A stretch of DNA of 61,208 nt, taken from positions 1-61,208 of the forward strand of contig CAZWIT010000002.1 of NCBI GenBank assembly GCA_964633905.1, in the 5' to 3' direction. Position numbers and translations under genes: made by a program. Below, one piece after another: positions 343-27,006 of the stretch; within the stretch, counting starts at the first letter, position 1, and each line of letters opens with the position of its first letter. The notes under the pieces were generated by a model. It had not been told where the DNA came from, did no database searches, and worked only from the letters and a program-made list of their open reading frames with translations. The DNA comes from an uncultured Gammaproteobacteria bacterium (GTDB lineage Bacteria; Patescibacteriota; Patescibacteriia; UBA1558; GWA2-36-10).

Positions 343-418
343 GCTTTTCCCGCCTTTGGCGGGACCCCGCCGTAGGCGGTGGCCAAGCGTGTGCACTCGA
401 CCACTATGCGAACCTTCC
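343..418 (-). pseudogene. tRNA-Ser 5' fragment interrupted in the anticodon loop by a 35-nt insert
   Basis: 383..418 is identical to 55..90 (36 bp). AAAGC at 347..343 continues the tRNA sequence after the insert. Confidence 0.9.
348..382 (-). repeat. Double-hairpin mini-insert, copy 1 (CCACCGCCTACGGCGGGGTCCCGCCAAAGGCGGGA)
   Basis: Hairpins CCGCC/GGCGG and CCCGCC/GGCGGG. Homologous to 26967..26999. Confidence 0.85.
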
Positions 419-433
419 TAAAAAACCAACTAT

Positions 434-486
434 GTTTACCCCGTAAATTAAGACGAATGTCATGAGGAAAAATTGTACGGGGTGAC
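434..486. repeat. ACCCYGT-family imperfect inverted repeat
   Basis: gtttaccccgtaaatt (434-449) versus aattgtacggggtgac (471-486). Confidence 0.65.
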
Positions 487-623
487 CTCTCCCAACTTAG
501 TTTTCCAAAAGACTTAATTTTTAACCTTCGAGGTTGATTTTAAAAAATCCCTATAAATATAATAGATCAAGGTAAAATAGTCAATTTTTCTAGTCTTAAG
601 GCATTTTTTTTGTTATAATATTA

Positions 624-1862
624 GTGTTTATGTTAACTAGAATCTTAAGAGTAGCTCCTAGGTATCAAAATGGCCAATTAAAATTGACCATGATTTTAGG
701 TTTATTTATATTATTTTGGGCATTATTTGATAGTGTAGTTACTTATATCACTCCAATCTTAATTGAAGAGCAGGGCTATTCAGAAACAATGTTAGGTTTA
801 ATTATTGGCAGTAGTTCTTTGATTGGCGGTTTATTTGATTTTGTTTTAAGTAAATTTATGAAGCGCGTTGACTTTCGTCGCTTCTTTTTGTTGATGTTAG
901 CTTTGTCATTTTTACATCCAATAGTTTTATCTCAAGCTCATGGCCTTGGTATTTGGCTACTAGCGATGGCTATTTGGGGACTCTATTATGATTTTTATGG
1001 TTTTGGTCTTTTTGATTATGTTGGTCGTCATAGTAGCATTAATCTGCATGCTCTTAATTTTGGTATTATTCAAACATTTAGATCTTTGGCAGGCGTGATT
1101 GGCCCATTGATAGTTGGCCTCTTGATTGTAGATGGTATTGGTTTAAAAGTTTTTGCTTATCAGTGGCTATTTTTATTAACTAGCACTATTTTTTTAGTAA
1201 GTTTCATTGTTTTGTATAATCGTAAGCCATTAGAATTAAAAGTTAGAAAAATAAAAAATAAACCTTTTTATTTAGAATTAAAATTATGGCGTCGTATTAG
1301 TAAAACTTTATTGCCAGTTTTAATTTTGACTTTGTTTATTTTTATGCAAGAGGCATTTTTTTGGACTTTGGCACCTATTTTTGGAGAAGGGCATCATTGG
1401 GGTGGATTATTTTTGGCAGCTTTTACCTTGCCAAGTTTATTATTGAGTTGGTATGTTGGCACTGTTACTAAAAAGTTCGGTAAAAAAAGAACAGCTTTTG
1501 TAAGTTTACTTTTAGGTTCTAGCATTTTGTCATTTTTTGCTTTGATGCAAAATCATTGGTGGGTGATGATTTTAATTTTTGTATCAGCTTGTTTTTTTAG
1601 CTTTACTTTGCCAGCCATTGATGGTGCTTATGCTGATTATATTAGTGAGACGCCTAGAGTTGAGAAGGAAATTATTGCTTTAGAGGATTTAGCCTTTAAC
1701 ATTGCTTATATTATTGGTCCGATTTTGGCTGGCATTTTAGCAGATATTTTTGATATTGCTAAAGCGTTTAGCATTATTGGCGTTATTGGTGTTTTGGTGT
1801 CTATTATTTTATTAAAAATAACGCCAAAGAGTATCAACATTAATTTAACTAAATTATCATAG
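624..1862 (+). CDS. MFS transporter
   Basis: 412 aa, about 12 hydrophobic segments, motif-A-like VTKKFGKKR. Start may be ATG at 630. Confidence 0.85.
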   Translation: MFMLTRILRVAPRYQNGQLKLTMILGLFILFWALFDSVVTYITPILIEEQGYSETMLGLIIGSSSLIGGLFDFVLSKFMKRVDFRRFFLLMLALSFLHPIVLSQAHGLGIWLLAMAIWGLYYDFYGFGLFDYVGRHSSINLHALNFGIIQTFRSLAGVIGPLIVGLLIVDGIGLKVFAYQWLFLLTSTIFLVSFIVLYNRKPLELKVRKIKNKPFYLELKLWRRISKTLLPVLILTLFIFMQEAFFWTLAPIFGEGHHWGGLFLAAFTLPSLLLSWYVGTVTKKFGKKRTAFVSLLLGSSILSFFALMQNHWWVMILIFVSACFFSFTLPAIDGAYADYISETPRVEKEIIALEDLAFNIAYIIGPILAGILADIFDIAKAFSIIGVIGVLVSIILLKITPKSININLTKLS

Positions 1863-1905
1863 CCTATTTGCTAGCTTAGCCTTATTTGTCTATAATGTGA
1901 ATATT

Positions 1906-2073
1906 ATGTTAGAAGATAAAAAAGTAAATTATCAAGAGAAAACAGACGAACACTTGGTTATTTTAGACACTTTTTTGATAATAGTAGCAGCTTTGGTTGA
2001 TCCTAAAACAGCTTTAGTTTTAGCTGGAGCTTCTTTGTTATTTTTTTATTTGTATAATTTAGCTAAAAAATAA
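1906..2073 (+). CDS. Small membrane protein (55 aa; not in ORF track)
   Basis: MLEDKKVNYQEKTDEHLVILDTFLIIVAALVDPKTALVLAGASLLFFYLYNLAKK; TATAAT at 1891-1896 upstream, terminator downstream. Confidence 0.6.
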   Translation: MLEDKKVNYQEKTDEHLVILDTFLIIVAALVDPKTALVLAGASLLFFYLYNLAKK

Positions 2074-2103
2074 TTTTTAAATGATAATTAGCTGTCAGCG
2101 AGT

Positions 2104-2122
2104 CCGCTTAAAGCGGTTTTTT
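2104..2122 (+). terminator. Intrinsic terminator
   Basis: ccgc-ttaaa-gcgg followed by tttttt. Confidence 0.5.
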
Positions 2123-2246
2123 AGTCCTAGTCAGGCCTAAAATGCTATGCTATTATTGTTAGTTCGGTGGCTAGTCATGCTCGTCAGCAGATGCCGAGTA
2201 GCTGGCCTAGAAATAATAGAAAATCTTAATTTATATTTTTTAATTT

Positions 2247-2951
2247 ATGCTTAAGAATCTTAAAGATGATTTAAGAAAATCATCTAGTCGGACTAGAGCT
2301 ATTAGCTCTTTACGTTTTTTTAAGACAGGCAAAGGACAGTATGGCGAGGGCGATAATTTTATTGGTGTGCCAGTGCCAACAGTCAGAAAAATAGCTAAAC
2401 AATATTTAGATTTGCCACTTAAAGAAGTTATTTTATTATTACATTCTAAAATTCACGAGGAGCGTCTTTGTGCCCTACTTATATTAGTAGATCAATACCA
2501 AAAAGGGGACAGCAAAAAACAAAAACAGATCTTTGATTTATATTTAAAAAATTATAAATTTATAAATAATTGGGATTTGATAGATTTGACGGCGCCACGG
2601 ATAGTCGGAGCTTATTTATTTGATAAGCCAAAAGGTATTTTATCTAAATTAGCAAAAAGTAAAAATTTGTGGCAGAGGCGAGTAGCAATTTTAGCCACTT
2701 TTCAATTTATTTATTATGGTCAAAGTAAAGAAACTATTAAAATTAGCAAAATATTATTACAAGATGAACATGATTTAATCCAAAAGGCAGTTGGCTGGAT
2801 GCTACGGGAAGTTGGTAAGCGAGTTGATGAAAAGATATTGCTTGATTTTTTAAATAAATACTACAAAGTCATGCCACGGACAATGTTGCGCTATGCCATT
2901 GAAAGATTGCCAGAAAAACTGAGAAAAAAATATTTATTAGGTCAGATTTAA
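2247..2951 (+). CDS. alkD: DNA alkylation repair protein, AlkD family
   Basis: NNWDLID, WQRR and KAVGWMLREVGK motifs. Confidence 0.88.
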   Translation: MLKNLKDDLRKSSSRTRAISSLRFFKTGKGQYGEGDNFIGVPVPTVRKIAKQYLDLPLKEVILLLHSKIHEERLCALLILVDQYQKGDSKKQKQIFDLYLKNYKFINNWDLIDLTAPRIVGAYLFDKPKGILSKLAKSKNLWQRRVAILATFQFIYYGQSKETIKISKILLQDEHDLIQKAVGWMLREVGKRVDEKILLDFLNKYYKVMPRTMLRYAIERLPEKLRKKYLLGQI

Positions 2952-3094
2952 ACTAATTTTTTATTAAAAAATTAGTTTTATTATTTTTTACTAGCTGAAT
3001 TTAGCTGGTATTTTTTATTAACATATTATTGTTATGATTTTAGGTAACTTTGTGTTATAATATAGTGGACAAAAATTAAAAATAAATAATATTT

Positions 3095-6000
3095 ATGTAC
3101 AAGCAAGCCTTGCCATCTTGGCGTTTTAGACCTTCTGTTCAAACCAAGCAAAGAATTATAAAAACAGTAGAATTATTCTTTTACTTTCTAGTTTGGCTGG
3201 TTAAAATTGTTAGTTCAGTACTCACAGCTATTGGTTATATTTTATTTATAAGCCTAGTATTTATTACTAAAAATACTTGGCAGTTAATGCCACCATTATT
3301 ACGTTGGCTTCGTTTTAAATCTGCACCTTATTTGCTTAATATTTTACGTTTAACCCTTAAGTTAATTAAAGCTAGCTTTTTATTCATTGGTCGCAAGATA
3401 CCAGTTTTAGAGTTAGCACTACGTTGGCTTTTTAAAAATATTTTTTTAGCTTTTTTCTACGCATTTAAAGGAATTTATTTAGTGCTAGCTACTATATTGA
3501 AAATTATTTGGTATGGTTTTACTATTTTCTTTGTCAAATTTTTAGGATTTTTTGGACCCAAAGCTAGTTATTTGTATGATAATCGGGCAGAAATCAAAGT
3601 CAGGGCAAATAAACAAGTTAAAGAATATAAATTATTTTTACTATGGCTTGCTAAGCCATTTTTACATTTCTTGCCTAAAAAATACGAAAAGAAAATATTA
3701 CCTAAAACTAAGAAAATAAATCAGGCCTTATCTCCAGTTATTGGCTTGTCGGATTTTAAGCATTTATTGCGTGAACCAAAACAAATTTTATTAAGACGGG
3801 CCATTGCCTCTTGGCTGGTATTTTTCTTAGTGATTTCTACCTTTGGTGTGGCTTCTTTAACTCCTTTGTTTAATTGGCTGTTTAGAGACAGACAGCCAGC
3901 TTACGCAGCTACTTTTACTGGTGCAGTTAAAGTTTCAGCTGGCAGCACTACTTTGTCAACTAATGGTAGTTGGTATACGGCCATGGCTTATTCGGGAGAC
4001 GGGATCAATGGTGATGCAGAAGCTGGGACTTTTAATCCTATTCATCCTGGTCCATCAGCAACTGACGGCGCAGCTGGGGCTTTGGCTCTAGGCCACGTAT
4101 CAGTAGCTGCAACTGCGACTTATGCGGCTGCTCAATTTATTGGTTTTAAGCCTAGTGATACTGGTAATTTGAGAGGAGTCCAGTTAATTTTAGAGAATTT
4201 AACTATTACTTCATTGTCAAATGTTGATATAGTAGTCGAACTTTTGAGTTTTCCCACAGCTTCTTGTACTACTTCTTGTACAAATTATGTGACTGGCACG
4301 CAAGGTGCCTATACCTATCCGAGCGATACTGTAGTTTTAAGAAGAGCAGTTAAACAGTTTAATCAAGGATTATCTGGTGAAAATTTAGCCCCTGGACAAT
4401 ATGGTCGTGGTACTTTTGATTTTCGTTTTGATCCAGAAGTGGCAGTCACTGCTGGGGCTCATTATGGTTTTAGGATTATCAATATGGGTGCTGGTACGCC
4501 AGTTTTTGGTACTTGGGCAGCCAACGCTCCTTATGGTGATTTTCCAACGGTTAATGGCACTATTAGGACTATTGGTGCTAATGACATTGATTTGACTAAT
4601 GCGCCCACAATTAATATGCCAAAAGTGTTAGCGGCACATAATGGCTTGACTGCCGCTGCCATGGTGGCTGCCAATTCAGCTGCTGGCGTGGGCTTGCCGA
4701 CAGTAAGGCGTACTCAAAATGAGCATTGGACAGCTACTTATTCTAGCGCTAATGCTAATTGGACTTTGACTGGAACTGTGTCTGGTACTCAGACTAATAA
4801 ATTAACAACACCTACAACTGGCGGAACAGGTGCTGCTTGGGTAAATGATGGTGTTCCGTTTACTACTTTAACAGCTGCTTCTACTGCTAGCACTGTTTTA
4901 TGTGTGGCCTCTACTAGTGGTTTTGCTACTAATCAAACTATTAATTTATGGGATGCAGATACTGCCACTGTTTCTTTGACAGTAGCTTCAGTTACTAATT
5001 CTCATGCTAGCTGTAGTGATGGTCCAGCTATTATAACTACTGCAGCTACGGTAGTTGGGTTTACTCCAGAAAAAAATGCCTCAGTTGCGCAGGCTATTTG
5101 GAAAAATCGTATTGTCCAAGGAGCAATGACTACTTTAACAGCCGATTCAGCTGTATCTACTCGTGTTTGTGTAGCTAGTATTGATGGTTTTTCGGCAGCA
5201 GTTGGTACAGCAGCTAGCGTTCAAATTTGGGACAACGATACAGCGCCAATTGTGACGCATCGTATTGCTAGTACTAATGCTTCGGATGGAGCTTGTCCGG
5301 CTAGTGGTCCGTCTATTATTTTAGCAGCAAATTTAACTACAGCTTTTACAGTAGCTCAAGGAGCTATGATTTCAGAAATCTCAGCTAATATTTCAAATAT
5401 CGGCACACCTTCAGATGGTGATGTCTTACGTTTTACTTCTTATAATTTTACCCAAAATCCGATTGGGTTAAATTCTCAATTAGCACGTACAACTTCAGTA
5501 GTTTTAGCTTATGCTAAGAGTCAAGCTTTGGCTACTTCAAATACTAATTATCCTTTTTTATCCAATCGACATATTTATTTTGTCGCTTATGGTGATGCTA
5601 ATACTACGGCTCCAGCTGATGGAGATATTGTGATAGTAGGTAATGGTAAAAGTAATGCTGATCCTTATGACTCTACAAATTTAACTAATGACTATACTTG
5701 GTTGGCTAAAGAGCAGCACGTGGTCAGTATTGATCGCTCCTGGGACGCGGCCTTAGCTTATACTGGTAATTATGGTGCAGCTATTGGCGATGGCGCTGGT
5801 ACTCGTGGTAATTTTGCTGCTTATTCATTTAATGGCGGTTGGGTTTCAGCTGTTATTACGCCAGGTTCAAAATTAACAATTGCTGATAATACTAATAAAC
5901 ATTATCGTCTGACTATTCCTGGTAAAATAGTTTTGGATTCGGATGCAATTTTAGCCTTTGGGGATAGTACTGATCCATTGCCAGCTTCTACACATGCTGA

Positions 6001-9000
6001 TATTTATTTTGATAATGTCTCACCGGCAGTTTCTTCAAATTTAGGCTCAGACTCAGCCGCTTCTACATCCTTGACCGTAGTATCAACCACTGGTTTTGCG
6101 CCAGGCGATACTATAGTTATTGATGACAATGATTCGCCAGCTATTACCAGGATTATAGCGGCTATTGAAAATTCTACCACCTTGACTCTGACAGCTGCAG
6201 CTGTCACTGGCTATACCACAGCTCAAAGTGCTTTTGCTGCTAAGGGACCACAAACCGAATTACCTACAGGTTCAGATAGAAGAGCGGGCGTTTATACTAT
6301 GACTGGTTTGACTGGCACTGGTGCTGGTACGCAGGATAATAATAGAACTGGTAGAGTTAATATTTATGGTCAAGGCAGCGATAATTTTCGTACCATGAAA
6401 AGCGATTTGGCAGTTGATATTGACGGTAATATTGATACTGGTTATTTGGGAAACAATTCAACCGATGCTGGTAATACTTGGGTTGATGTCAAAGATAATG
6501 TAGTAGGTAATTGGCAGCCACTAGATAATATTGCGGTAGCGGGAGCTACTAATCAAGTAGTAGATAATAATTTGTCTTCCGTAAGAATGGGCGGTAATGA
6601 TGATGCTAGCCAATTTCCAGTTTGGACAGGTCTAGCTGGTTTAGGTCGTAATGCTTTGCCAACTTCTAATATGGAAGTTGCAGAAATTGGCACAGTACCA
6701 ATTACTAATGTTTATAATGCTGATTATAACGGTGGTTCACCTTTGTATTCAGTAAATTATGCTACATCTACTACTTGGACATTGTTTGGTGATGGGGCAA
6801 ACTCTGAACTTAATGATGCGATTTATTTTGGTGATCAGGGTACAAATATGATGTATTCATTGGAAGCTAATCTCGGCACCCTAATGAATGCTTCGGCAAT
6901 TTTTACTTGGGAGTTTTATAATGGAGCTGGTTGGACTGCTTTTACACCGCGTGATGCTTATAAATATCAGACACGTACTGGTCATACCATACCATTGTCA
7001 GCTAATACTACCAGAAATTCATATACAGTATCAGTCACCTCTGGTAATCAGGCAAACTTTGGGGTGGATCAAGTAGTCATGATTGACGATAATGATTCTA
7101 GCCCTATTTATCGGCGCATCAGTGCCGTGGCAGCTGGCGTAATTACTTTTACAGAGCCAGTAACAGCTGATTATACTACTGCTCAATCGGCCAGTATTTC
7201 GCGGCTCAATGGAGGTCAATGGAAATCTTTTGACCCTAGTAATTTTTTTACAGAAAATGGTAATGCTCCGCGTCGTATTTTGAGCTGGACACCTTATGAC
7301 TTGTCTGGTACGCCAGCTAAAACTACCATCAATGGTGTAAATGCTTATTGGGTCAGAGTGAGAATTTCTGGCTTTACTTCTTGGACTACTTCTCCAGTCA
7401 ATCAAAATACTCCAATTGGTATGAGCGGAATCGAGCGTATAGATTCAGGAGCTTTAAATGTGTCTAGCGGTAGTCAAGAAGCAAAAATTAGCCAAATTAC
7501 CACTGGCTTAAGCTATGACCCTAATGAAACATTTACTTTAGAATATGGTAATTCACCCGGCTGGATAGAAACACATAAATATTCAGCTGCTGCCATTGTG
7601 CCGCCCTCAGCTCCCTATGTTTGGCATATTCAGAATGGTCAACTAAATATTAATGAGACTAACTTAACTCATCTTAATATTCAAAATACTAATGTAGACA
7701 CCACTGATTATACAATGTCAGGTTTGGTGTATATGGATATGGTAGCTGATGCTACTAGTCGTCGTCTAGGATTTCTGATGCGCCAAAGTCTTGATGGTAA
7801 TGGTTATGCTGCTTTAATCACTAAAACCAATGCCGCTAATACAGTTGGCTTTTATACAACTTTGGCTGGTGTGCCAACAGTGATTGGAACGCCTACTTCC
7901 AAAGCATTTTCTGACAGTACTTGGTATTGTTTAAAATCACAGGTCTCAGGCACAACTTTGAATGTCAAATTTTGGGCAACGACCGATTGTAATAGTGGTG
8001 AACCTGGCTCGTGGGATTTTACTACTACTAATAGTACTTATACTAGTGGTAAAGCGGGCGTCTATGCAGGCTCTGCGACTTCTGGCTCTGGTACTAAAGC
8101 TATTTTTGACAGCATTAGTTCTGATACTGGCTGGACGGACAATTTTGATGATGTTGATTATTGGCGCTTAACAGGCTCTAGCGCTAGTGTAATTGGTAAT
8201 GCTTATCCAAGTGTTCCTTTTACTAGCTCTTATTTGAATTTTACTATTAAGCATAAAGGCGGCTGGAATGGCACAGTCAGGCCAGAAATAGGAGATAAAA
8301 TATATATTAGTTCTACGGCTATTAGAAGCTACAAAGGCTTGGATAGTTCTGTTGGTATTACTACTAATAATACTAATACTAAATACGAAGTATGGGATTT
8401 CGAATGGAATCCAGCAGCCTCCAACTATACTGTGACTGGTAGCGCTACGGGTGCGGCTGGTACAGCTACGCCAGGAACAACCTATACGGCACCTGATAAT
8501 AAAGTTTCTTTGCGTATTAATTCTGGTACACCAACAGCGACCAAGTTTGGTGATCGGATGTTGCTTTTACAAAATAATTATTTGCGTAATAATGGCGCCT
8601 GGACAGGTGTTAATGGCATGGGTAGTGCGGTTTTGATGCCGCCTACTTGGACTCTGACTGGTAGTCCTATCGCTACTAGATATAATATAGAGGGTATCAG
8701 TGGTACAGCTACAGCTAGACAACACGGTACTATTGATTTTTGGTTTAAGACTAATTATAGTGGTTCACCAGCAACTTCTACCAGTCCTTTTGGGCAGTAT
8801 TTACTGGATTACGCAGCCAATGGTGATACGGATCGTTTGTTTATTAGACATAATACTAATGGCAAATTAGAGGTAGCTATTTATGCTGGCGCTGCTCAGG
8901 GTACTTTGTTACAACAGACTTTTTCGGCTACTGCTGGTCAGTGGTATCACTTGCGTGTGGCTTGGCGTGAAGCAGCTACTGCTTTTAAACGCGCTTGGCT

Positions 9001-12000
9001 AGATGGTGTAGCTTTTGAAACTAACCAGGGTACTACTTTGGGTACTAGAGGTGCTAACGCTGGTTTATTGCGTATAGGTAATAATTGGCAATACAATGGT
9101 GCTTTTGATGGAGCTATAGATGAGTTTAATATTTTTGATGCTGAACTCGATACCTCTGGCTCTTGTAATTGGGGCAATTTTGATGTGCCGACTACGGTTT
9201 GGACAGGGGGTGCTACTCCTGCTAATTGTCCTTCGGCTACTGGTGCTAATATTTATCGAGCTAGTTTTGATACGGCTATGAATCCTCAAGAAGGCTGGGT
9301 TTGGGCAGACTATGCCTATGGCAGTCCTAATATGATTTTTACTAATGGTGCTGATACTGGTAATGAAAGAATCAGAGTTATTACTTATCCGCAGAGAACT
9401 AGAGTGTGGGTAGATAATACTGGAGAAAAGTATACGCCTTCAGCACGTATAAAATATGGTTCTGGTCACGAAGAAAATGGTACGGCCGCTACTCTAGCTG
9501 GTTGGGCGCATAATTTTACTTATCATCATAAAGCTGCTCGTGACTCTAGCTCTGCGCCTACCTATTCACCAGTTTTGAATCTCAAACGTAGTACGCATAT
9601 CTGGTCAGATGAAGAGATTAGTTATACAGGTGCTACTTTAGTAGCTGCCAATATCGTTAATCAGGGTCTTGGTTTTGGCGTATCAGCCGTTGGTTTGGCA
9701 GGTTTATCCAATATGAACTTGAGTCATCTATCAATGGAAAACCAATATAATAATTTTGCCGTGACTACTAACCCTTATACTTCAGTGACGCCTTATCCAT
9801 CACAGACTATTTCCAAATCAGTATTTTATAATTACTTTGATCGTGCCTATACTGTGGTCAGTAAAACTCAGGGTTCGAATATGGTTGGTGCTTATTTTGT
9901 GACTACTCACGTGGGAGCTGCCAATATTGGTACAGGTTATAATGCTTTTACTAGTCAAAATGTTGGTATTGATGGCAGTATTTTTATGGGGCATCGTAAT
10001 GCCTATGTGACTGTGCCACCAGCTGCTGCTGGTGGTGCGGCGACATTTGTGTCTGGTCGTCTTTATACCGTAGCTAATTCCGAATTTTATAATAATGGTG
10101 TGACTGGTGCTGGTACATCAGGAGCTTTAAATTTTGGTGTTGGTGTCGCTAAAGTAAATATTAATAATAATAAGTTTTCTATTAATACTAATGGCATTAG
10201 ATTACATGGTAATGCTTTTGTGGCTATGTCCGATAATGTACTTGACGGGCATGTTTCTGATGGCGCAGTAACAGTTGGGGCTGAATATGGCTCGGGTATT
10301 AGGTCACATCCTTCTTATTCTTCGGTATCAGTGACTGATGATGGTAGTATTTATGGTCGTGGTATGTGGAATGAAGCCGACATTAGTATGCCACCCAATA
10401 CTACTACTTTTGAAGCCGAATCTTTGTTACAGTTTACCGGAGTTGATACCCAGATTTTAAGTCCAGTATTTTTTGGCACCCAAGATTATAATAATATGTC
10501 TCGCTTGGGTGATCATTATATGGCTAGCACTATACCAGGCACTGACATTCGTATTAATTATTCTAGCAGTACTAAAGACATAGTTAATCAAAGTACTTTT
10601 GGTAATATGCGCACTACTGGCGCTGGACTTATAGATACCACTGTGCATACAGCCGGCGGTTACGCTTGGCGTATGGAACCGCAGAGTTCGGATGTGCCAT
10701 TAGAATATAGCGCTAAAGTTATTGGTGTGGCTAATGAACCCTTGGCTGTTACTGGTTATATTCGTGTTAATAGTTATTATGGTTCTAGTAATTTACCAAC
10801 AGTTACTTTGTCGGGCCTTGGCATGACGGGAGCTAATTTAACTTGGACAGCAGCCAATTCAGCTAACGAATGGCAACAATTTGTAGTGTCAGGAACACCA
10901 AATGAATCAGCTTTAGCAGATTTAACTATTTCTAGTCAATCATCTTTCGTAGTGGAAGATGAAGGTAGTAGTGAAGTAATTTTTAATCCGCTAGGTAATT
11001 ATTTACCGCCATGGGTAGAAGATGTAGATAAATCTTGGACACCAAATCAATGGGTTGGTTATTTATTTAAAGATACTTATGGTCGTATTTTTGAAGTAGT
11101 GAAAAATACACCTACTATATTATTTTTGAAGGGCATAGTAGCTCCGCATCTAAAGAGTACAACCATGACTAATGCTACGGCTGGTGATTATCAGCTTTTC
11201 AGGAGACCTTATGTTTATTTGGATGATGTATCGGTTTTATCAGGTACAGTAGATACTGGTACTTTAGATTTTTTCTCAGCTGGGCAGCCAGTTTCACCAT
11301 GGTTATCAACTGGTTTAACAGCTTCTAGTATTTGGGGAGCGCAAATTGGTTCATTTGCTGATATTGATGGCTCGTTTGGACAATTATTAAATGATCGTTT
11401 GGCAGTAAAAAGAGGTTTGGTGAGCGATGTGGCTGCCTCGACAACTTCTTTTGTCACAGATTTAACACAGGCTACATCTAATTTTTATCAAAATCAGACA
11501 GTAGTAATGATGAGTGGTCAAAATGCTGGTATTTCTCGCCGTATTTCTAGTTATAACGGAACAACTAAAGCGATTACTGTAGATGCGGCCTTGCCTTTTG
11601 CTCCGGCTTTTAACGATGAATTTGTTATTTTGAGTCAATATACCAATATTAGTAGTAGTGGCGGTGGTGCTTCAGCTGAAGAAATTGCCCAAGCAGTTTG
11701 GGAATATGTTGATCGAAAATTAACTAGTGCTACTTTGACTAGTGGTGGGGCTTTAGCTACTAGTGCTGAAATTGCCGCTTTGCAGGCTGACGTTACTTAT
11801 ATTAGAAATAAAGTAGATGATATTTATACAGACACTCAATATATTAGTGGTATTGTTGATGATATTTTGGCTAAGTGGGGTATTTATAGTGCGGCTGATA
11901 TTAATACTAGTTTAAACACTGTCTTAACTAGAATCGGGGAGCACACAGATTTATCAAGTGCCAATACTTTATTTGGTCGTAGTAAATATTTGCAAGAAAA

Positions 12001-15000: not shown

Positions 15001-15997
15001 TGATACTAGAGTAGAAAAAATTGTTCGTACTCAGGAAGAAAACATTGCTTCGCCGCAAGACAAAATTATGTCTTATCGTGAAAATAAAGAGAGCTTAGCG
15101 GCAGTAAAAAGTGATTTAGAAGAATTAAAAGCTTTAATAGCACAGGCGGATTCTTCTAAAGGATTTTTAGGTGCCTTAGGTGGCATTCAGACTATTTCAG
15201 TTTGGGGTATCATAATTGCTTTCGTTACAGGTTTTGGTTTATTGGTAGCTATTTTGTTTTCAATGTGGAAACATCAAATGGCTATTGCTAGTGGTCAAAT
15301 GGCCTTGCAGTCACATTTGATGGGCAATAAAGCGATTAATTCAGAAAGAGGCTCTAGTGCTAAAAAGAAAAAGAAAAAAACAAATAGCAAAATTAGGCAA
15401 GAGCAAGTAGCAGCAGATTCTCAAAATCAAGAAACGATTAAGGTAGCTACTAATTTTAAGACTTATGTAAAACAAGCCTTTTCTAAATTATTTGGTAAAA
15501 ATAAAGTATCATTATTAGTATTATTGGCACTATTACTAATATATTTTGCTATTAGGCAATTTAATCTTTGGTCAGTGGTAGCCGGCTTAAATAATAAGCC
15601 AGTTAGCGAAAATCAAATAACAACAGAAACTTCTAGCCCTGATTGGCAGGATAAAACTACGGCTAATTTAAGTGCCGATGATGTTAATCTTTCTTTTGGC
15701 AATGAAGAAGGAGCTCTGGCTACTACTTCTAATCCTAGTATGCTCGCAACTACCACTGTTCCAGAAGAGTCTACTTTATATATTAATATAAAATCTACGC
15801 CCACGGGTTGGTTAAATGTGCGCAAGAGTGCTAGTAAAACTGCAGAAATCTTGACGCAAGTAAATAGTGGTGATAGATTTGAATCTATAGAGAAAAAGAG
15901 TGTTATTGGCGATGATTATGATTGGTATAAAATAAATTTTTCCAAAGACCAATCGGGTTGGGTTTATGGGCAGTATGTTGCGGAGATAGAGGGGTGA
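3095..15997 (+). CDS. Giant (4300 aa) membrane-anchored surface protein: ConA/LamG-like and beta-helix-like regions, internal repeats, coiled coil, two C-terminal TM helices, SH3b
   Basis: Uninterrupted ORF. LamG-like GTIDFW..WYHLRVAW..FDGAIDEFNIFD; C-terminal WLNVR..WYKI..GWVYGQYV (SH3b); five FYN..G.NAG..RRI..Y.G.TK repeats. Confidence 0.85.
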   Translation: MYKQALPSWRFRPSVQTKQRIIKTVELFFYFLVWLVKIVSSVLTAIGYILFISLVFITKNTWQLMPPLLRWLRFKSAPYLLNILRLTLKLIKASFLFIGRKIPVLELALRWLFKNIFLAFFYAFKGIYLVLATILKIIWYGFTIFFVKFLGFFGPKASYLYDNRAEIKVRANKQVKEYKLFLLWLAKPFLHFLPKKYEKKILPKTKKINQALSPVIGLSDFKHLLREPKQILLRRAIASWLVFFLVISTFGVASLTPLFNWLFRDRQPAYAATFTGAVKVSAGSTTLSTNGSWYTAMAYSGDGINGDAEAGTFNPIHPGPSATDGAAGALALGHVSVAATATYAAAQFIGFKPSDTGNLRGVQLILENLTITSLSNVDIVVELLSFPTASCTTSCTNYVTGTQGAYTYPSDTVVLRRAVKQFNQGLSGENLAPGQYGRGTFDFRFDPEVAVTAGAHYGFRIINMGAGTPVFGTWAANAPYGDFPTVNGTIRTIGANDIDLTNAPTINMPKVLAAHNGLTAAAMVAANSAAGVGLPTVRRTQNEHWTATYSSANANWTLTGTVSGTQTNKLTTPTTGGTGAAWVNDGVPFTTLTAASTASTVLCVASTSGFATNQTINLWDADTATVSLTVASVTNSHASCSDGPAIITTAATVVGFTPEKNASVAQAIWKNRIVQGAMTTLTADSAVSTRVCVASIDGFSAAVGTAASVQIWDNDTAPIVTHRIASTNASDGACPASGPSIILAANLTTAFTVAQGAMISEISANISNIGTPSDGDVLRFTSYNFTQNPIGLNSQLARTTSVVLAYAKSQALATSNTNYPFLSNRHIYFVAYGDANTTAPADGDIVIVGNGKSNADPYDSTNLTNDYTWLAKEQHVVSIDRSWDAALAYTGNYGAAIGDGAGTRGNFAAYSFNGGWVSAVITPGSKLTIADNTNKHYRLTIPGKIVLDSDAILAFGDSTDPLPASTHADIYFDNVSPAVSSNLGSDSAASTSLTVVSTTGFAPGDTIVIDDNDSPAITRIIAAIENSTTLTLTAAAVTGYTTAQSAFAAKGPQTELPTGSDRRAGVYTMTGLTGTGAGTQDNNRTGRVNIYGQGSDNFRTMKSDLAVDIDGNIDTGYLGNNSTDAGNTWVDVKDNVVGNWQPLDNIAVAGATNQVVDNNLSSVRMGGNDDASQFPVWTGLAGLGRNALPTSNMEVAEIGTVPITNVYNADYNGGSPLYSVNYATSTTWTLFGDGANSELNDAIYFGDQGTNMMYSLEANLGTLMNASAIFTWEFYNGAGWTAFTPRDAYKYQTRTGHTIPLSANTTRNSYTVSVTSGNQANFGVDQVVMIDDNDSSPIYRRISAVAAGVITFTEPVTADYTTAQSASISRLNGGQWKSFDPSNFFTENGNAPRRILSWTPYDLSGTPAKTTINGVNAYWVRVRISGFTSWTTSPVNQNTPIGMSGIERIDSGALNVSSGSQEAKISQITTGLSYDPNETFTLEYGNSPGWIETHKYSAAAIVPPSAPYVWHIQNGQLNINETNLTHLNIQNTNVDTTDYTMSGLVYMDMVADATSRRLGFLMRQSLDGNGYAALITKTNAANTVGFYTTLAGVPTVIGTPTSKAFSDSTWYCLKSQVSGTTLNVKFWATTDCNSGEPGSWDFTTTNSTYTSGKAGVYAGSATSGSGTKAIFDSISSDTGWTDNFDDVDYWRLTGSSASVIGNAYPSVPFTSSYLNFTIKHKGGWNGTVRPEIGDKIYISSTAIRSYKGLDSSVGITTNNTNTKYEVWDFEWNPAASNYTVTGSATGAAGTATPGTTYTAPDNKVSLRINSGTPTATKFGDRMLLLQNNYLRNNGAWTGVNGMGSAVLMPPTWTLTGSPIATRYNIEGISGTATARQHGTIDFWFKTNYSGSPATSTSPFGQYLLDYAANGDTDRLFIRHNTNGKLEVAIYAGAAQGTLLQQTFSATAGQWYHLRVAWREAATAFKRAWLDGVAFETNQGTTLGTRGANAGLLRIGNNWQYNGAFDGAIDEFNIFDAELDTSGSCNWGNFDVPTTVWTGGATPANCPSATGANIYRASFDTAMNPQEGWVWADYAYGSPNMIFTNGADTGNERIRVITYPQRTRVWVDNTGEKYTPSARIKYGSGHEENGTAATLAGWAHNFTYHHKAARDSSSAPTYSPVLNLKRSTHIWSDEEISYTGATLVAANIVNQGLGFGVSAVGLAGLSNMNLSHLSMENQYNNFAVTTNPYTSVTPYPSQTISKSVFYNYFDRAYTVVSKTQGSNMVGAYFVTTHVGAANIGTGYNAFTSQNVGIDGSIFMGHRNAYVTVPPAAAGGAATFVSGRLYTVANSEFYNNGVTGAGTSGALNFGVGVAKVNINNNKFSINTNGIRLHGNAFVAMSDNVLDGHVSDGAVTVGAEYGSGIRSHPSYSSVSVTDDGSIYGRGMWNEADISMPPNTTTFEAESLLQFTGVDTQILSPVFFGTQDYNNMSRLGDHYMASTIPGTDIRINYSSSTKDIVNQSTFGNMRTTGAGLIDTTVHTAGGYAWRMEPQSSDVPLEYSAKVIGVANEPLAVTGYIRVNSYYGSSNLPTVTLSGLGMTGANLTWTAANSANEWQQFVVSGTPNESALADLTISSQSSFVVEDEGSSEVIFNPLGNYLPPWVEDVDKSWTPNQWVGYLFKDTYGRIFEVVKNTPTILFLKGIVAPHLKSTTMTNATAGDYQLFRRPYVYLDDVSVLSGTVDTGTLDFFSAGQPVSPWLSTGLTASSIWGAQIGSFADIDGSFGQLLNDRLAVKRGLVSDVAASTTSFVTDLTQATSNFYQNQTVVMMSGQNAGISRRISSYNGTTKAITVDAALPFAPAFNDEFVILSQYTNISSSGGGASAEEIAQAVWEYVDRKLTSATLTSGGALATSAEIAALQADVTYIRNKVDDIYTDTQYISGIVDDILAKWGIYSAADINTSLNTVLTRIGEHTDLSSANTLFGRSKYLQEKWGTQTADTIFNKADDAYNKINSVQTELGYNGQSTTAYQDLQSVLAYVDQMEGYVDTLETLVGSPADLSSADTLFGRIKKNYEAIEALNNLSAQQVWEYGTRTLTGGVTLDDPTQIWDVASALLSNSSSIGKLIVDNLDTTISSRGTSNLTAADVWSAATRTITNIENDGLAALAAAVWANSTRELTAGDLTAQRVWDTLLTSINTIGSIGVLLGTNIDTTISSRASAADLASLQSTLNGLISNLIVAQKAVNDPNPSATEFITTLTNANDDFYNDGVLVFTSGANAGQVRRITNYDGATKTVTVDPALNIEPNSSDTFTILASTANASLDPAAIWTYANRRLTSGNLDVGSLATLSDLESSEAALGAQLDTLINNLIITQKSISDANPSTTSFVTTLTNSTSDFYKDEVLVFTTGANAGQVRRISSYNGATKSLTITPALSNTPTDGDDFTILASTANASLDATAIWAYANRTLTAGTLDSGSLATLSDLQLTETNLTDKINENQTRLDKIISSLIVAEKAVNDASASNVTFITTLASAVDDFYNDGVLVFTSGANAGQVRRITNYDGATKTITVDPVLSLAPGNGDTFTILAATASASASLDAAAVWNYATRRLSDGTLDSGSLATLADLQSTEDNLDLSITAVANAVDLLSDDLISIRSTVNENTTSSTLASFATNLSSSVNDLYNNALITFTTGNNAGVARRIEDYNGTTKILTIEPDLTTPPLHGDGFTILKTLAVPVTKIDTIGTDVAGIKDDVSTIKADIALIKSRLDNIDANIIALETAVDNIEVSSSGSTVNNITRVYEIKPEEMFSSMNSIASSIQNINSTLGRLDNNTLSNILSVAQENTTDLKYVRNKLADFRAVSTVQRQVLDNVAVPVVNTWYTSGSVDLNIMVSNPAQTPQKVPFKIYLPKEAKLEHIMDDGGFNIQYDIQLDTLYASGELELAPGESVKKFIKMRDIWQIPEDETKLAKSQADEFYKKLVKGAYSSQALLLKNDIDTRVEKIVRTQEENIASPQDKIMSYRENKESLAAVKSDLEELKALIAQADSSKGFLGALGGIQTISVWGIIIAFVTGFGLLVAILFSMWKHQMAIASGQMALQSHLMGNKAINSERGSSAKKKKKKTNSKIRQEQVAADSQNQETIKVATNFKTYVKQAFSKLFGKNKVSLLVLLALLLIYFAIRQFNLWSVVAGLNNKPVSENQITTETSSPDWQDKTTANLSADDVNLSFGNEEGALATTSNPSMLATTTVPEESTLYINIKSTPTGWLNVRKSASKTAEILTQVNSGDRFESIEKKSVIGDDYDWYKINFSKDQSGWVYGQYVAEIEG
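12809..13733 (+). repeat. Intragenic 112-bp near-identical direct repeat (12809-12920 and 13622-13733)
   Basis: 6 mismatches by eye, 5 synonymous. Confidence 0.9.
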
Positions 15998-19116: not shown

Positions 19117-19117
19117 A

Positions 19118-19878: not shown

Positions 19879-19886
19879 CATAAGTT

Positions 19887-23004: not shown

Positions 23005-23018
23005 TAAAAATTAAATTT

Positions 23019-23477: not shown

Positions 23478-23487
23478 TTATAAAATT

Positions 23488-23524
23488 AAAAAACACCGCC
23501 AATAAATTTTAGGGGGTGTTTTTT
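23488..23524. terminator. Bidirectional terminator
   Basis: aaaaaacacc...ggtgtttttt between convergent genes. Confidence 0.65.
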
Positions 23525-23586
23525 AATTTGACCTAAGGTCATCAAGTGGTCCAGGGTGATCTTTTTCCATCCCTTTACATTAATGA

Positions 23587-23859: not shown

Positions 23860-24069
23860 AAGGGTTTTTTTCTTAATGGTTTATTAAAACGACCTTTTTA
23901 CCAGACAAAAAAACGCCACTATTGCGTTAGACGTTTATTTTTAGGTACCCCATACTATAGCACGTAAAAGCTTATTTTGTCAATTATTAATAGTACTAGA
24001 CAAATAGCTTGTTTACATAGTGCTTAAAAAGTATTATAATATTAGTGTAAATAAAAATAAATAAATAAT

Positions 24070-24456
24070 ATGTCCAACAAAAAACAAACGAGCAATAAGA
24101 GTCGTGGTCAGAGTTGGTCTCTTTTAAGAGATTGGCTTTTTTTAACGCTGATAATCATGGTAGTATCTTTTATATTACCTGGCGTTGAAGTAGTTAGTTT
24201 TTCGGCAGCCCTAGCCGCCGCATTAATTTTAGGTATTTTAAATGCTGTGTTAAAGCCATTAATGCTATTTTTAACACTACCTATTAATTTTTTAACACTA
24301 GGTCTATTTACCTGGGTAATTAATGCTATTTTAATTGTGATAGTAGCAGCTTTAGTGCCAGGATTCACAGTGTTTAACATTGGCTACGCCATAGTATTTA
24401 GTATCTTTGTTTCAATGTTTACTTATTTAGTTTCTCATCTTTTTAGCACTAGATAA
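24070..24456 (+). CDS. YvlD/4-TMS phage-holin-family membrane protein
   Basis: LGILNAVLKPL..LTLPINFLTLGLFTWVINA signature. Confidence 0.85.
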   Translation: MSNKKQTSNKSRGQSWSLLRDWLFLTLIIMVVSFILPGVEVVSFSAALAAALILGILNAVLKPLMLFLTLPINFLTLGLFTWVINAILIVIVAALVPGFTVFNIGYAIVFSIFVSMFTYLVSHLFSTR

Positions 24457-24477
24457 TTATTGTTTAAATTTAATTCA

Positions 24478-24508
24478 AAAAAACTACTAGCCTGTCTAGT
24501 AGTTTTTT
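24478..24508. terminator. Bidirectional terminator
   Basis: aaaaaactactag-cctgt-ctagtagtttttt. Confidence 0.85.
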
Positions 24509-24523
24509 AGTTAATATTTTTTA

Positions 24524-26035: not shown

Positions 26036-26072
26036 GTTGTAATTATAACAAAAATAAGTTAAATAAAAAACC

Positions 26073-26196
26073 ACCAAGCAAGGTTGATGATTTCTTAATG
26101 GCTCCGGCAGAAAATTTGGAGTAAAAAATAATTTTCTGCACTTCGCCAAGATTAAAAAAATACCAACTAAGGTTGATATTCTTTTAATGGCTCCGG
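26073..26196 (-). repeat. Degenerate tandem duplication of tRNA-Asn 3' end plus terminator (89-bp offset)
   Basis: ttaatggctccgg at 26095-26107 and 26184-26196; aaggttgat at 26080-26088 and 26169-26177. Confidence 0.75.
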
Positions 26197-26262
26197 GGGA
26201 GGGATTCGAACCCACGACCAATTGGTTAACAGCCAACTGCGCTACCACTGCGCTACCCCGGA
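26188..26262 (-). tRNA. tRNA-Asn(GTT)
   Basis: GTTGG-CTGTTAA-CCAAT anticodon arm, GGTTCGAATCC, CCA; no intron. Confidence 0.97.
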
Positions 26263-26510
26263 ATAAAATTTTTAATAAGATTTTCTTTTTTATTTTTTTT
26301 CCACTTTTTAATTTGTGCTTCGCGCCTCATAGCCTCTATCTTATTTGTAAATCTTTCAAAATATACTATTTTTACTGGTTTTCTATGCTTGGTGTATTTA
26401 GCTCCATTACCACTATTATGTTTTTCTTCCCTTTGTTTTATGTTAGTTGTGTAGCCGGCATAGAGCGTATTGTCTTTGCAGCGCGCAAGGTAGAAAAAAT
26501 ATTTTTGCAT
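26253..26510 (-). CDS. Solo GIY-YIG nuclease (85 aa, UPF0213/YhbQ-like)
   Basis: FFYLARCKDNTLYAGYT..R..KHNSG.GAKYT..RKPV..VY.E....AMRREAQIK. Stop TAG is tRNA-Asn nt 8-10. Confidence 0.9.
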   Translation of the reverse strand: MQKYFFYLARCKDNTLYAGYTTNIKQREEKHNSGNGAKYTKHRKPVKIVYFERFTNKIEAMRREAQIKKWKKNKKENLIKNFIPG

Positions 26511-26542
26511 ATCATTTTTTGAGGTCGTTTTTGTATATACAC

Positions 26543-26673
26543 AATGTCCTTCGGCTCACTCTGTTCGCTCAGGACATTCGCCTCGTCTTTCTTGATGAGG
26601 GGTTGAGGCACTGAACAAAGTGAAGTGCCGAAACCATGAGCGAGGAGGAATGAAATGACGACGAGTCGAATGG
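26543..26673. repeat. REP-like palindrome cluster on the tRNA-Met 3' trailer
   Basis: gtcc-TTCGGCT-N9-CGCTCA-ggac; ggcac...gtgcc hairpin; 40-bp CCA-TTCGACT-N21-CGCTCA-TGG unit (minus strand) at 26634-26673. Confidence 0.75.
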
Positions 26674-26748
26674 TAGCAGGGGTGGGGGTCGAACCCACGA
26701 CCTCGGGCTTATGAGTCCCACGCTCTAACCAAGCTGAGCTACCCTGCC
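26671..26748 (-). tRNA. tRNA-Met(CAT), elongator type (Ile2 not excluded)
   Basis: CTCATAA loop, paired position 1-72, ends TACCA. Confidence 0.9.
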
Positions 26749-26840
26749 ACGAACTATTCGCTACGCTCAAGTTCGTGGCCAAGCCTCTTGGTTTAATACT
26801 AAGTGGCTGTGCCAAAAACCCGAACGAAGTGAGTGGTTTT
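26746..26840. repeat. REP-like palindromes between tRNA-fMet and tRNA-Met
   Basis: ccacgaact-attcgctacgctca-agttcgtgg; aaaacc-cgaacgaagtgagt-ggtttt. Confidence 0.7.
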
Positions 26841-26916
26841 TGGTAGCGGGAGCCGGACTCGAACCGGCGACCTCCAGGTTATGGGCCTGGCGAGCTGCCA
26901 ACTGCTCTATCCCGCG
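26841..26916 (-). tRNA. Initiator tRNA-fMet(CAT)
   Basis: CGCGGGA acceptor with unpaired C1:T72; anticodon arm CCAGG-CCCATAA-CCTGG. Confidence 0.9.
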
Positions 26917-26945
26917 TCGTAAAAAATTTGGCTTAATAATTCATA

Positions 26946-27006
26946 TGGTCGGGGCGAGAGGACTTGCCACCGCCTTTGGCGGGGTCCCGCTCCGCGGGAA
27001 ACCTCT
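26946..27006 (-). pseudogene. tRNA-Pro-type 3' fragment interrupted in the T-loop by a 33-nt insert
   Basis: Removing 26967-26999 gives AGAGG-TTCAAGT-CCTCT-CGCCCCG-ACCA: a perfect T-arm, acceptor 3' strand and CCA. Confidence 0.85.
26967..26999 (+). repeat. Double-hairpin mini-insert, copy 2 (CCACCGCCTTTGGCGGGGTCCCGCTCCGCGGGA)
   Basis: Same stems and ends as 348..382; only the loop regions differ. Confidence 0.85.

Follow-up and report, generated by a model that had tools for sequence, protein, structure and literature searches.

Ultra-short double-hairpin elements in CPR bacteria and their association with solo GIY-YIG nuclease genes and tRNA-Ser

We analyzed a stretch of 61,208 nucleotides (contig CAZWIT010000002.1 of assembly GCA_964633905.1, named as an uncultured gammaproteobacterium and assigned by GTDB to the Patescibacteriota; hereafter referred to as the window), in which a GC-rich double-hairpin module of 33–37 nucleotides (nt), termed M below, interrupts two pieces of tRNA sequence. 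M represents a large family that is widespread in the ultra-small bacteria belonging to the candidate phyla radiation (CPR, or Patescibacteria), whose genomes are small and streamlined and of whose mobile DNA little is known. It is also a conserved cis component of cassettes that combine a solo GIY-YIG nuclease gene with tRNA-Ser. Whether M is a selfish, non-coding element dispersed across CPR chromosomes and tied to GIY-YIG cassettes of the homing type is, in our estimate, an evenly balanced question, and the mechanism of its mobilization is one that we infer. The original prediction had portrayed an ultra-short element directed to tRNA loops. The present finding is more general: the reading as a mobile element is supported, and the bias toward tRNA is real without being exclusive.

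A dispersed family of double-hairpin modules

A search of the window for the pattern CCACCGCC-N-GGCGGGGTCCCGC-N-GCGGGA returned exactly two matches, one on each strand (Table 1), and the number expected from 100 shuffles was 0.00; both copies are thus where the original prediction had placed them. Folded as single-stranded DNA, each copy forms two adjacent hairpins, with free energies of −13.9 kcal/mol for copy 1 and −12.1 kcal/mol for copy 2 and fold z values of −3.4 to −4.1. The window has a GC content of about 33%, and its GC-rich islands are the two M sites, besides the tRNAs, one terminator-like hairpin and stretches unlike M inside open reading frames (ORFs). The two copies lie on opposite strands of one replichore.

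At site 1, the order is a displaced 5′ half of tRNA-Ser reaching up to anticodon position 35, M, 17 nt, an ORF for an 84-amino-acid (aa) GIY-YIG protein, and an intact tRNA-Ser. The ORF is thus bracketed by the tRNA-Ser fragment with M on one side and by the intact tRNA-Ser on the other, and its TAG stop codon falls within the D-loop of the intact tRNA. The 17 nt between M and the ATG comprise AAAGC, with which the tRNA sequence resumes, and 12 more bases; beyond AAAGC the sequence diverges from tRNA-Ser, into the 5′ leader of the ORF. Removal of M joins 41 contiguous nucleotides of tRNA-Ser with zero duplication, the break lying between anticodon positions 35 and 36. In an orthologue of this site (L183; loci are designated by L and a number), the homologous copy of M is 100% identical. 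Window site 1 represents a GIY-YIG/tRNA-Ser cassette at its conserved left junction.

Site 2 corresponds to the mirror-image right junction: an intact tRNA-Pro, a spacer, 7 nt of tRNA sequence, M, and a displaced tRNA 3′ end. Read on the minus strand, the segment consists of AGAGGTT, the reverse complement of M, and then CAAGTCCTCTCGCCCCGACCA, together giving a T arm with five paired stem positions. AGAGGTT is the sole part of the tRNA copy on the far side of M, and no tRNA-like sequence was found upstream of it. Sequence comparison showed that the intact tRNA-Pro(GGG) differs from the fragment in its T arm and acceptor stem. There is no ORF at this junction. The orthologous locus L052 carries the same tRNA fragment and a copy of M that differs by one loop nucleotide. 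Both interrupted pieces in the window are accordingly partial copies adjoining an intact tRNA of the same type (Ser and Pro, respectively). The intact tRNA beside each piece and the bracketed GIY-YIG gene at site 1 are points beyond the original prediction, which had spoken of two different tRNA fragments; the inserts lie not in free fragments but in partial duplicates beside an intact gene, 5–12 nt from the inner end of the duplicate. The complementarity of the two window copies at the RNA level also brought up a split tRNA, with pairing of trailer and leader as in Nanoarchaeum; this was ruled out, because the halves come from different tRNAs (acceptor strands GGAAGGT versus CGCCCCG) and intact genes stand alongside.

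A first scan of reference genomes with CGCC-N3-6-GGCGGGGTCCCGC was loose: chance hits on GC-rich actinomycetes accounted for most of the 120 matches listed, leaving only some 12 usable loci, low-GC or CPR. All of the low-GC matches contained the full module, including a CCA 5′ end and a GCGGGA or GCGGTG 3′ end that the pattern had not forced; those with titles came from metagenome-assembled genomes (MAGs) labelled Parcubacteria, Nomurabacteria, Magasanikbacteria and Gammaproteobacteria, and from two unclassified bacterial MAGs. Full-module copies were also present in higher-GC matches labelled Saccharibacteria (L015) and Kerfeldbacteria (L021). A stricter, exact-stem scan of metagenome contigs yielded at least 120 loci, and no copies of M were found in viral contigs. 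Pooling of the genome and metagenome scans gave, among the matches listed, 128 distinct contexts of M, to which all counts out of 128 below refer. The two inserts of the window are therefore members of one dispersed family of ultra-short non-coding double-hairpin elements, as had been proposed.

M has the form CCACCGCC-loop-GGCGGGGTCCCGC(C)-loop-(G)GCGGGA in type A (85 copies) or ends in GCGGTGA in type B (36 copies, both numbers among the matches listed); all copies start with CCAC and end with GGGA or GTGA. The module is composed of four alternating copies of one GCGGG/CCCGC unit and has, on folding, two alternative pairings, into two hairpins or into a single long one, which, by way of speculation, would suit a structure-specific nuclease. 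The base pair extending hairpin 2 is of the Watson-Crick kind in 81 of 94 copies versus 40% expected, and occurs as C-G, T-A and A-T. A compensatory variant of this hairpin, in which TCCCGCC/GGCGGGA is changed to TTCCGCC/GGCGGAA, is found in L241 and L247. A fuzzy search for degenerate copies recovered almost exclusively the reverse strands of type B, besides about six near-exact variants. Type B copies end in an in-frame TGA when read in the CCA-CCG-CC... frame and are nearly identical to their own reverse complement. Sensitive Rfam searches returned no family matching M, and a limited full-text literature search yielded no account of the motif or of palindromic or miniature inverted-repeat elements in CPR bacteria, and nothing relevant on COG2827/YhbQ-type GIY-YIG proteins beside tRNAs. 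The family is apparently undescribed.

Many copies (for example in L193, L139, L226, L144, L194, L209 and L177) lie inside short AT-rich tandem repeats peculiar to the locus (TTGTAAAG, GGATTTG or AAATTG), which enlarge the insertions inside genes to 100–150 nt; this suggests local slippage or duplication near the hairpin. M also coincides with contig ends. L256, a 4.9-kb Logan contig with the neighbouring genes, ends by gene coordinates at about position 389 of the window, a few bases from M, and the contig of L169 starts with exactly the first base of an M copy; the repeat probably breaks short-read assemblies.

The precision of insertion can be read from 16 loci, in each of which a duplicate of the 5′ part of a tRNA, with M in it, immediately precedes the intact tRNA itself. 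Within the duplicate, the sequence halts at M and resumes exactly after it for 5–12 nt, so that insertion is precise and without target-site duplication; the distance of M from the duplicate's inner end is always 5–12 nt. The claim that deletion of the insert restores contiguous tRNA sequence without duplication is thereby borne out at site 1 and at these loci, and a pair of LigA genes described below likewise shows duplication-free insertion. The insertion points within tRNA copies are the anticodon loop between positions 35 and 36 (the commonest), the D loop, the T loop (site 2 of the window is an example) and, once, the acceptor stem. Within tRNA genes, M was found in partial, non-functional copies adjoining the intact gene, and in these only.

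The flanks conform to the consensus yTTG^AAA(A/G)C. In type A copies, position −1 is G in 66 of 85, and positions +2 and +3 are A in 68–69 of 85. Copies of this type without a nearby tRNA keep TTG^AAA, with G at −1 in 28 of 41 and A at +2 and +3 in 35 and 34 of 41, respectively. The preference is two-sided, the 3′ AAA being as strong as the 5′ flank, which is a loose (T)TG. Intact tRNAs lie within 300 nt of 36 of the 128 copies, and 22 of these 36 are tRNA-Ser; the tRNA background in the same loci is about 0.1 per kb. Random flanks, duplications and a lack of tRNA bias had been set in advance as the findings that would speak against a targeted element; what was found is a consensus, duplication-free insertion and the tRNA bias just given. 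The proposed targeting of tRNA loops stands in part: the bias toward tRNA, especially tRNA-Ser, holds, and loop specificity does not, as most copies are elsewhere and about a quarter lie in frame in protein genes. A weak enrichment of complementarity between the flanking sequences (a stem of at least 5 bp in 14% versus 6%) comes mostly from tRNA arms, and the preference is thus better described by sequence than by loop structure. Locus-specific direct repeats of at least 10 nt across M are also enriched, being present at 17% of the copies versus about 1% of controls. Copies in loci with strong GC skew are oriented 21:18 relative to the skew, without strand bias, and copies of M are solitary, without inverted doublets.

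About 33 of the 128 copies reside inside ORFs that run uninterrupted for 150 nt or more to each side of M. The host proteins include CopA, LigA, CysRS, UvrA, LepA, the CCA-adding enzyme, SufS, GyrB, and ELP3-like and ClpB-like proteins; M occurs in both orientations, always in variable loops or termini, and adds 12–13 residues. In LigA of L166, M lies just ahead of the KxDG adenylation motif, giving 17 extra residues relative to PDB 1B04. Comparison with the empty gene of L257, whose protein is 73% identical, reveals exactly 12 extra residues, equal to 36 nt: the empty sequence reads ...CAG|GAAAAAAAC... and the filled one ...CAAG[36-nt M]AAAAAAAC..., the insert lying between the G and the AAA of a GAA codon. 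The original prediction had raised the possibility that the insert is spliced from RNA. The 35-nt copies in CopA, CysRS, GyrB, SufS and others maintain the reading frame only when M is counted, so M is translated. M is absent from every full-length functional tRNA, each interrupted tRNA being truncated and having an intact neighbour, and no bulge-helix-bulge, group I signature or Rfam intron match was found on M. Judged by these reading frames, M is kept in transcript and protein instead of being spliced out. In L160, an insertion that contains M breaks the frame of UvrB between its RP...QVEDL motifs; the upstream frame ends 39 nt past M, and the downstream part begins anew at an ATG. A split gene, a pseudogene or a sequencing error could each account for this.

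Cassettes of GIY-YIG genes and tRNA

ORF clustering over the approximately 0.9 Mb around the 128 copies identified GIY-YIG as the only strongly recurrent protein family near M (21 loci); no transposase, integrase or HUH protein recurred in these clusters. At least 17 of the 128 contexts have a GIY-YIG ORF oriented like M, whose start lies 15–46 nt beyond M and whose end falls at or within a tRNA (mostly tRNA-Ser). As a sample independent of M, we used seven relatives of the window GIY-YIG protein picked by protein similarity. All seven loci have M or a variant of it at the edge of a partial tRNA-Ser copy: exact M in two, the compensatory variant in two, a reversed type B copy within the D loop in one, in another a longer variant (with the ORF downstream of the intact tRNA), and the second hairpin alone, TCCCGC-ATTTT-GCGGGA, in one, from a MAG labelled Marinimicrobia. 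The orientation of M is reversed with respect to the GIY-YIG ORF in L162 and L245.

The encoded proteins have 79–89 aa in most loci and, according to Pfam, consist of the catalytic domain only; in 25 ORFs, the catalytic residues (Y, YxG, R, H/N and E) show no variation. Between homologous cassettes and the window copy, M is 83–100% identical, with differences that are confined to the loops or compensatory, as compared with 64–80% for the ORF DNA, 47–68% for the spacer and 39–62% for the upstream DNA. This excess of identity and the covariation in hairpin 2 mark M as a constrained part of the cassette and not a chance passenger. These results, taken together, show that M is a conserved cis component of solo GIY-YIG/tRNA-Ser cassettes.

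The full arrangement is seen in L247/L248 and L252, where the order is A′-M-ORF-A-B-spacer-a-M-B′, in which A′ and B′ denote the displaced 5′ and 3′ tRNA halves, A-B the intact tRNA, and a the few to 22 nt of 5′ side; a short leader stands between the first M and the ORF. In L247/L248, GGAGAGG of A′ pairs with CCTCTCC of B′, and the inner tRNA has its own stem, GGAAGGG/CCCTTCC; the outer halves therefore resemble a single resident tRNA that an incoming unit, bringing its own tRNA, has split. Between closely related contigs, the sole difference is the block B-spacer-a-M or a-M-B′, of which assembly collapse is a possible cause. The same logic applies to L165, where a tRNA-Ile/GIY-YIG/tRNA-Pro unit is bounded by inverted copies of M.

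Two further arrangements were seen around the cassettes. In L253/L254 (labelled Marinimicrobia, outside CPR), a homologous GIY-YIG ORF by a tRNA-Ser is flanked by two copies of nt 1–27 of the tRNA, each followed by the second hairpin of M alone, TCCCGCATTTTGCGGGA. Displaced tRNA 5′ fragments upstream of GIY-YIG ORFs (L137/L161/L134, L170, L145 and L250) gather further hairpin inserts: a divergent double hairpin (TTCCGCCTTTGGCGGAACTCCGCTAAAAGCGG), single hairpins (TCCCGCCAAGGCGGGA), reversed copies of M and a form collapsed to one hairpin (CCACCGCCTTGTGCGGGA). There are thus both decay products of M and families related to it.

A second solo GIY-YIG ORF of the window, of 85 aa, runs into a tRNA-Asn and is without M. 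Another hairpin, AATGTCCT-GAGCGAACAGAGTGAGCCGA-AGGACATT, lies 37 nt upstream of its start, and L052 has the same arrangement of hairpin, GIY-YIG ORF and tRNA-Asn. It may be that every GIY-YIG subfamily has its own hairpin partner.

Table 1. Features of the window, in order of position
Feature	Position	Strand	Description
Intact tRNA-Ser(GGA)	1..90	−	Functional cassette copy; ARAGORN; Rfam tRNA model, 55 bits
Solo GIY-YIG nuclease ORF, 84 aa	76..330	−	Pfam PF01541, E = 2.7e-18
AAAGC	343..347	−	tRNA-Ser nt 37–41, directly after M; right-hand match 5 nt long
M copy 1	348..382	−	CCACCGCCTACGGCGGGGTCCCGCCAAAGGCGGGA, 35 nt, type A, GCGGGA end; exact pattern match
Displaced tRNA-Ser(GGA) nt 1–36	383..418	−	GGAAGGTTCGCATAGTGGTCGAGTGCACACGCTTGG; 36/36 identical to positions 55–90, in the intact tRNA
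4300-aa ORF	3095..15997	+	Single ORF, 13 kb of the window
tRNA-Asn	26188..26262	−	Entered by the 85-aa ORF
Second solo GIY-YIG ORF, 85 aa	26253..26510	−	PF01541, E = 5.8e-19; 43% identical to the first
Other hairpin	26548..26573	−	Upstream of the 85-aa ORF
Spacer 3′ of tRNA-Met	26550..26670	−	Structured motif
Pro-type tRNA 3′ piece	26946..26966	−	CAAGTCCTCTCGCCCCGACCA; 3′ part of T loop, 3′ strands of T-stem and acceptor stem, CCA
M copy 2	26967..26999	+	CCACCGCCTTTGGCGGGGTCCCGCTCCGCGGGA, 33 nt, antisense to the interrupted tRNA fragment; exact pattern match
AGAGGTT	27000..27006	−	5′ strand of T-stem and first two T-loop bases; AGAGG pairs with CCTCT across M
Intact tRNA-Pro(GGG)	27043..27119	−	ARAGORN; 36 nt upstream of the interrupted Pro-type fragment
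Spacer 3′ of tRNA-Ala	27120..27234	−	Structured motif
GC-rich hairpin	34014..34054		Between parB and a relA/spoT-like gene

Three other features of the window were recorded. The spacers 3′ of tRNA-Ala and tRNA-Met, and also that after tRNA-Ser in L123, share a structured motif, CCATTCGACTC...hairpin...CGCTCATGG...CGAATGyCCTGAGCG...CGAAGGrCA, in which CGCTCA is complementary to TGAGCG; its only Rfam match is a sub-threshold one to GA-cis, 18.9 bits against a gathering score of 34.7. A GC-rich hairpin (−43 kcal/mol) flanked by runs of A and T resembles a bidirectional terminator and is unrelated to M. A single ORF of 4300 aa occupies 13 kb.

Possible routes of spread

We describe M as a selfish palindromic repeat of miniature size that is coupled to a minimal cassette of GIY-YIG gene and tRNA; its movement by the GIY-YIG route is favoured by the linkage but unproven. 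The original prediction had named the solo GIY-YIG proteins as one possible mobilizer, and their physical linkage to M is confirmed (21 loci, and seven of the seven cassettes sampled independently of M); that they mobilize it is what we infer. The cassettes would be elements resembling free-standing homing endonucleases that enter a resident tRNA gene. Each would bring a replacement tRNA portion, by which the resident half would be pushed aside with M at the junction. The GIY-YIG ORF would probably be read from the promoter of the resident tRNA, with M in its 5′ leader; indeed, the start codon is only 17 nt away from M, which must therefore be part of the transcript leader. Solo copies of M could arise when breaks at sites like the anticodon loop of tRNA-Ser, CTTG(G)^AAA(A/G)C, are repaired from the M copy of a cassette, the short tRNA-derived flanks serving as microhomology ("ectopic homing"). 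The flanks of solo copies resemble those of cassettes, CTTG(G) and AAA(A/G)C. A bolder version, which we put forward tentatively and think somewhat doubtful, is that an 80-aa GIY-YIG protein with a catalytic domain only and a 35-nt hairpin with interchangeable stems constitute a new minimal bacterial mobile system, in which the hairpin would be the cis site of the nuclease, tRNA genes would be colonized with a replacement piece and a borrowed promoter, and the bare hairpin would be scattered in trans.

Several observations weigh against the reading of M as a selfish element tied to homing-type cassettes. The link between nuclease and M is one of association only, and at about 85% of the copies no GIY-YIG gene lies within 1.5 kb of M. 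The proteins, of 80–85 aa, have by Pfam no DNA-binding domain to account for sequence-specific homing, and the intact tRNA of the cassette still has the presumed target, so that immunity to self-cleavage is not accounted for. The D-loop and acceptor-stem sites (TAG^TGCG and CAG^TTGG) are unlike the TTG^AAA motif, and neither the flank duplications at some copies nor the rule of 5–12 nt from the end follows from the model. The two copies in the window have different stem lengths and are unlike in each of the loops; neither, then, is a recent duplicate of the other. The stems of the metagenome set were fixed by the search pattern, conservation being judged from other data, and the variants L249 and L250 are possibly assembly collapses.

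Other explanations of the same facts differ mainly in what, if anything, moves M. The original prediction had favoured mobilization of the HUH type, in which M would be a minimal element like IS200/IS605 or the repetitive extragenic palindromes (REPs), with two end hairpins, moved in trans by a Y1 transposase or REP-associated tyrosine transposase (RAYT) encoded elsewhere. The insertion without target-site duplication, the two similar hairpins with one at each end (the whole element being two adjacent hairpins), the conserved 5′ flank that ends in G and is often TTG, and stems as strictly conserved as a protein recognition site would be are all in its favour. The original prediction had stated that the window has no HUH gene; neither Y1_Tnp nor any other transposase was found among its annotated ORFs of at least 100 aa (the 4300-aa ORF was not scanned), and no such family recurs around the 128 copies. 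IS200/IS605 elements are strongly strand-biased, inserting into the lagging-strand template, whereas the orientation of M is balanced; one-sided recognition does not predict a 3′ AAA preferred as strongly as the 5′ flank; M has neither a GTAG or CGTC tag nor an inverted doublet of the kind formed by REPs (REPIN); and many copies lie within genes. We therefore consider this route quite unlikely. Alternatively, no dedicated enzyme would be needed if M spread by hairpin-induced template switching or short-patch gene conversion, as has been proposed for the GC clusters of yeast mitochondria, the tRNA leftovers being merely safe landing sites with an ideal target, whence the link to GIY-YIG genes. 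The enriched direct repeats across M, the pseudo-tRNA fragments that gather several M-type inserts (L145, L137, L170 and L250) and the microhomology at both junctions fit this idea. It is harder to reconcile with the presence of M in all seven independently sampled cassettes, with its constant distance of 5–12 nt from the end of the duplicate in place of random sites within it, with its conservation above the ORF itself, and with the occurrence of one and the same stem under the MAG labels Parcubacteria, Saccharibacteria, Kerfeldbacteria, Nomurabacteria and Magasanikbacteria, a constancy that is hard to keep up without a recognizing factor. On balance, spread without an enzyme seems to us improbable, though somewhat less so than the HUH route.

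M could also be a functional signal, such as a stabilizer or insulator in the leader of the GIY-YIG mRNA, a processing signal near tRNA or the site of a host protein, and its spread would then be secondary. Its stems are invariant while the neighbouring non-coding DNA has diverged to near randomness, its position 15–46 nt upstream of the ORF start is fixed, the 17 nt up to the ATG in the window place it in the transcript leader, and there is a proposed precedent in the GC-rich palindromes that flank mitochondrial tRNA genes, which have been suggested to be processing signals. Such a role does not explain why copies occur in both orientations, why they stand in the coding regions of unrelated housekeeping genes, to which they add 12–13 arbitrary residues, or why intergenic copies have no common neighbour; the inversion of M relative to the ORF in L162 and L245 and the lack of any Rfam family match also speak against it. 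We judge a functional signal to be improbable to the same degree as spread without an enzyme. As for an intron removed from tRNA and mRNA transcripts, the positions of M at 35|36 of the anticodon loop and in the D and T loops recall those of tRNA introns, and deletion of M does restore tRNA sequence. This proposal is already contradicted by the truncation of all interrupted tRNAs beside an intact gene, with no full-length tRNA containing M, by the 35-nt copies in protein genes, whose frame is preserved only if M is retained, and by the lack of a bulge-helix-bulge or group I signature and of an Rfam match; we give it hardly any credence.

Irrespective of its route, M is a single, nearly invariant 35-nt element found in MAGs labelled as several CPR lineages, in tRNA leftovers, intergenic DNA and core proteins. 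It is a source of protein length variation and can serve as an annotation marker, by which odd peptide insertions, broken assemblies and false tRNA fragments are explained. If the link to the nuclease is true, M and its gene would make up a tractable and very small mobile system of nuclease plus hairpin, a bacterial counterpart of the double-hairpin and GC-cluster elements of mitochondria, and the old question of what moves such elements could be tested with one small protein and a short DNA. If the minimal-system reading is true as well, this system would have seeded insertions of 12–13 residues in essential proteins across the CPR.

Comparison with known systems

M lacks defining features of REP/RAYT and IS200/IS605 elements. 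REP palindromes have a conserved terminal GTAG or CGTC tag (PMC3733652); REPs and REPINs are extragenic and occur as inverted doublets, and RAYT genes are flanked by REPs (PMC3337134). M is like the palindromes of REP and IS200/IS605 elements in its short GC-rich hairpins, its high copy number and its conserved stems, which suggest protein recognition, and it is like IS200/IS605 in its duplication-free insertion and its subterminal hairpins at both ends. IS200/IS605 elements insert 3′ of a fixed tetra- or pentanucleotide; at M, the 5′ flank is a loose (T)TG, and AAA on the 3′ side is preferred to an equal degree. Unlike REP/REPIN-RAYT systems, it has no GTAG/CGTC tag and no inverted doublets and is not restricted to extragenic DNA; unlike IS200/IS605 and RAYT, it has no Y1 gene nearby, either among the window ORFs of at least 100 aa or in the approximately 0.9 Mb around the 128 copies, and shows no strand bias.

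The cassettes call to mind SegB of phage T4, a free-standing GIY-YIG homing endonuclease in a tRNA gene cluster (PMC2330249). They are similar in that the GIY-YIG gene stands between or against tRNA genes and is present or absent in related genomes, and their spread, too, may involve break repair that copies the nuclease gene together with adjacent markers. Like free-standing GIY-YIG homing endonucleases in general, the encoded proteins have an intact catalytic domain (PF01541, with invariant residues); unlike them, they consist of this domain of 80–85 aa alone, without a DNA-binding domain in Pfam. In I-TevI and the Seg proteins, a DNA-binding domain provides for a long recognition site. The cassettes also differ from SegB in having a replacement tRNA portion, a displaced half left behind and a double hairpin at the junction, and in being known from sequence alone.

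Rickettsia palindromic elements (RPEs) are selfish palindromic repeats of 100–150 bp that have no transposase of their own, and we know of neither a linked nuclease gene family nor a target motif for them. They are reportedly (Ogata et al., 2000 and 2002) tolerated in frame in protein and RNA genes, in surface loops or termini of the products. M is like RPEs in its in-frame insertion into conserved protein genes (LigA, UvrA, LepA, CopA and CysRS), where it is kept in the product. It is unlike them in its length of 33–37 nt versus 100–150 bp, in the phylum of its hosts, and in having a target motif and a linked nuclease family; we claim no relationship in sequence.

The double-hairpin elements (DHEs) of Allomyces and Schizosaccharomyces mitochondria and the GC clusters of yeast mitochondria are GC-rich islands of about 30–40 nt that fold into a pair of hairpins. 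They occur in ORFs and structural RNA genes as well as between genes, are kept in transcripts and have no flanking duplication; copies are identical across species (PMC10085805; PMC2800124, citing Paquin et al., 2000; PMC4478555). M is similarly a GC-rich double hairpin of about 35 nt in AT-rich DNA, inserted without duplication and unspliced. It is dissimilar in residing in bacterial CPR chromosomes, in having an unrelated sequence, and in its TTG^AAA preference, its bias toward tRNA-Ser, its GIY-YIG/tRNA cassettes and its many in-frame housekeeping copies; no common descent is implied. In Allomyces, a DHE borders on a mobile endonuclease insertion, which brings with it a replacement piece of atp6; to our knowledge, the activity that mobilizes the mitochondrial double-hairpin and GC-cluster elements has never been identified. 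The behaviour of M is closest to that of the mitochondrial DHEs and GC clusters and of RPEs, and the cassette is closest to the free-standing GIY-YIG homing endonucleases.

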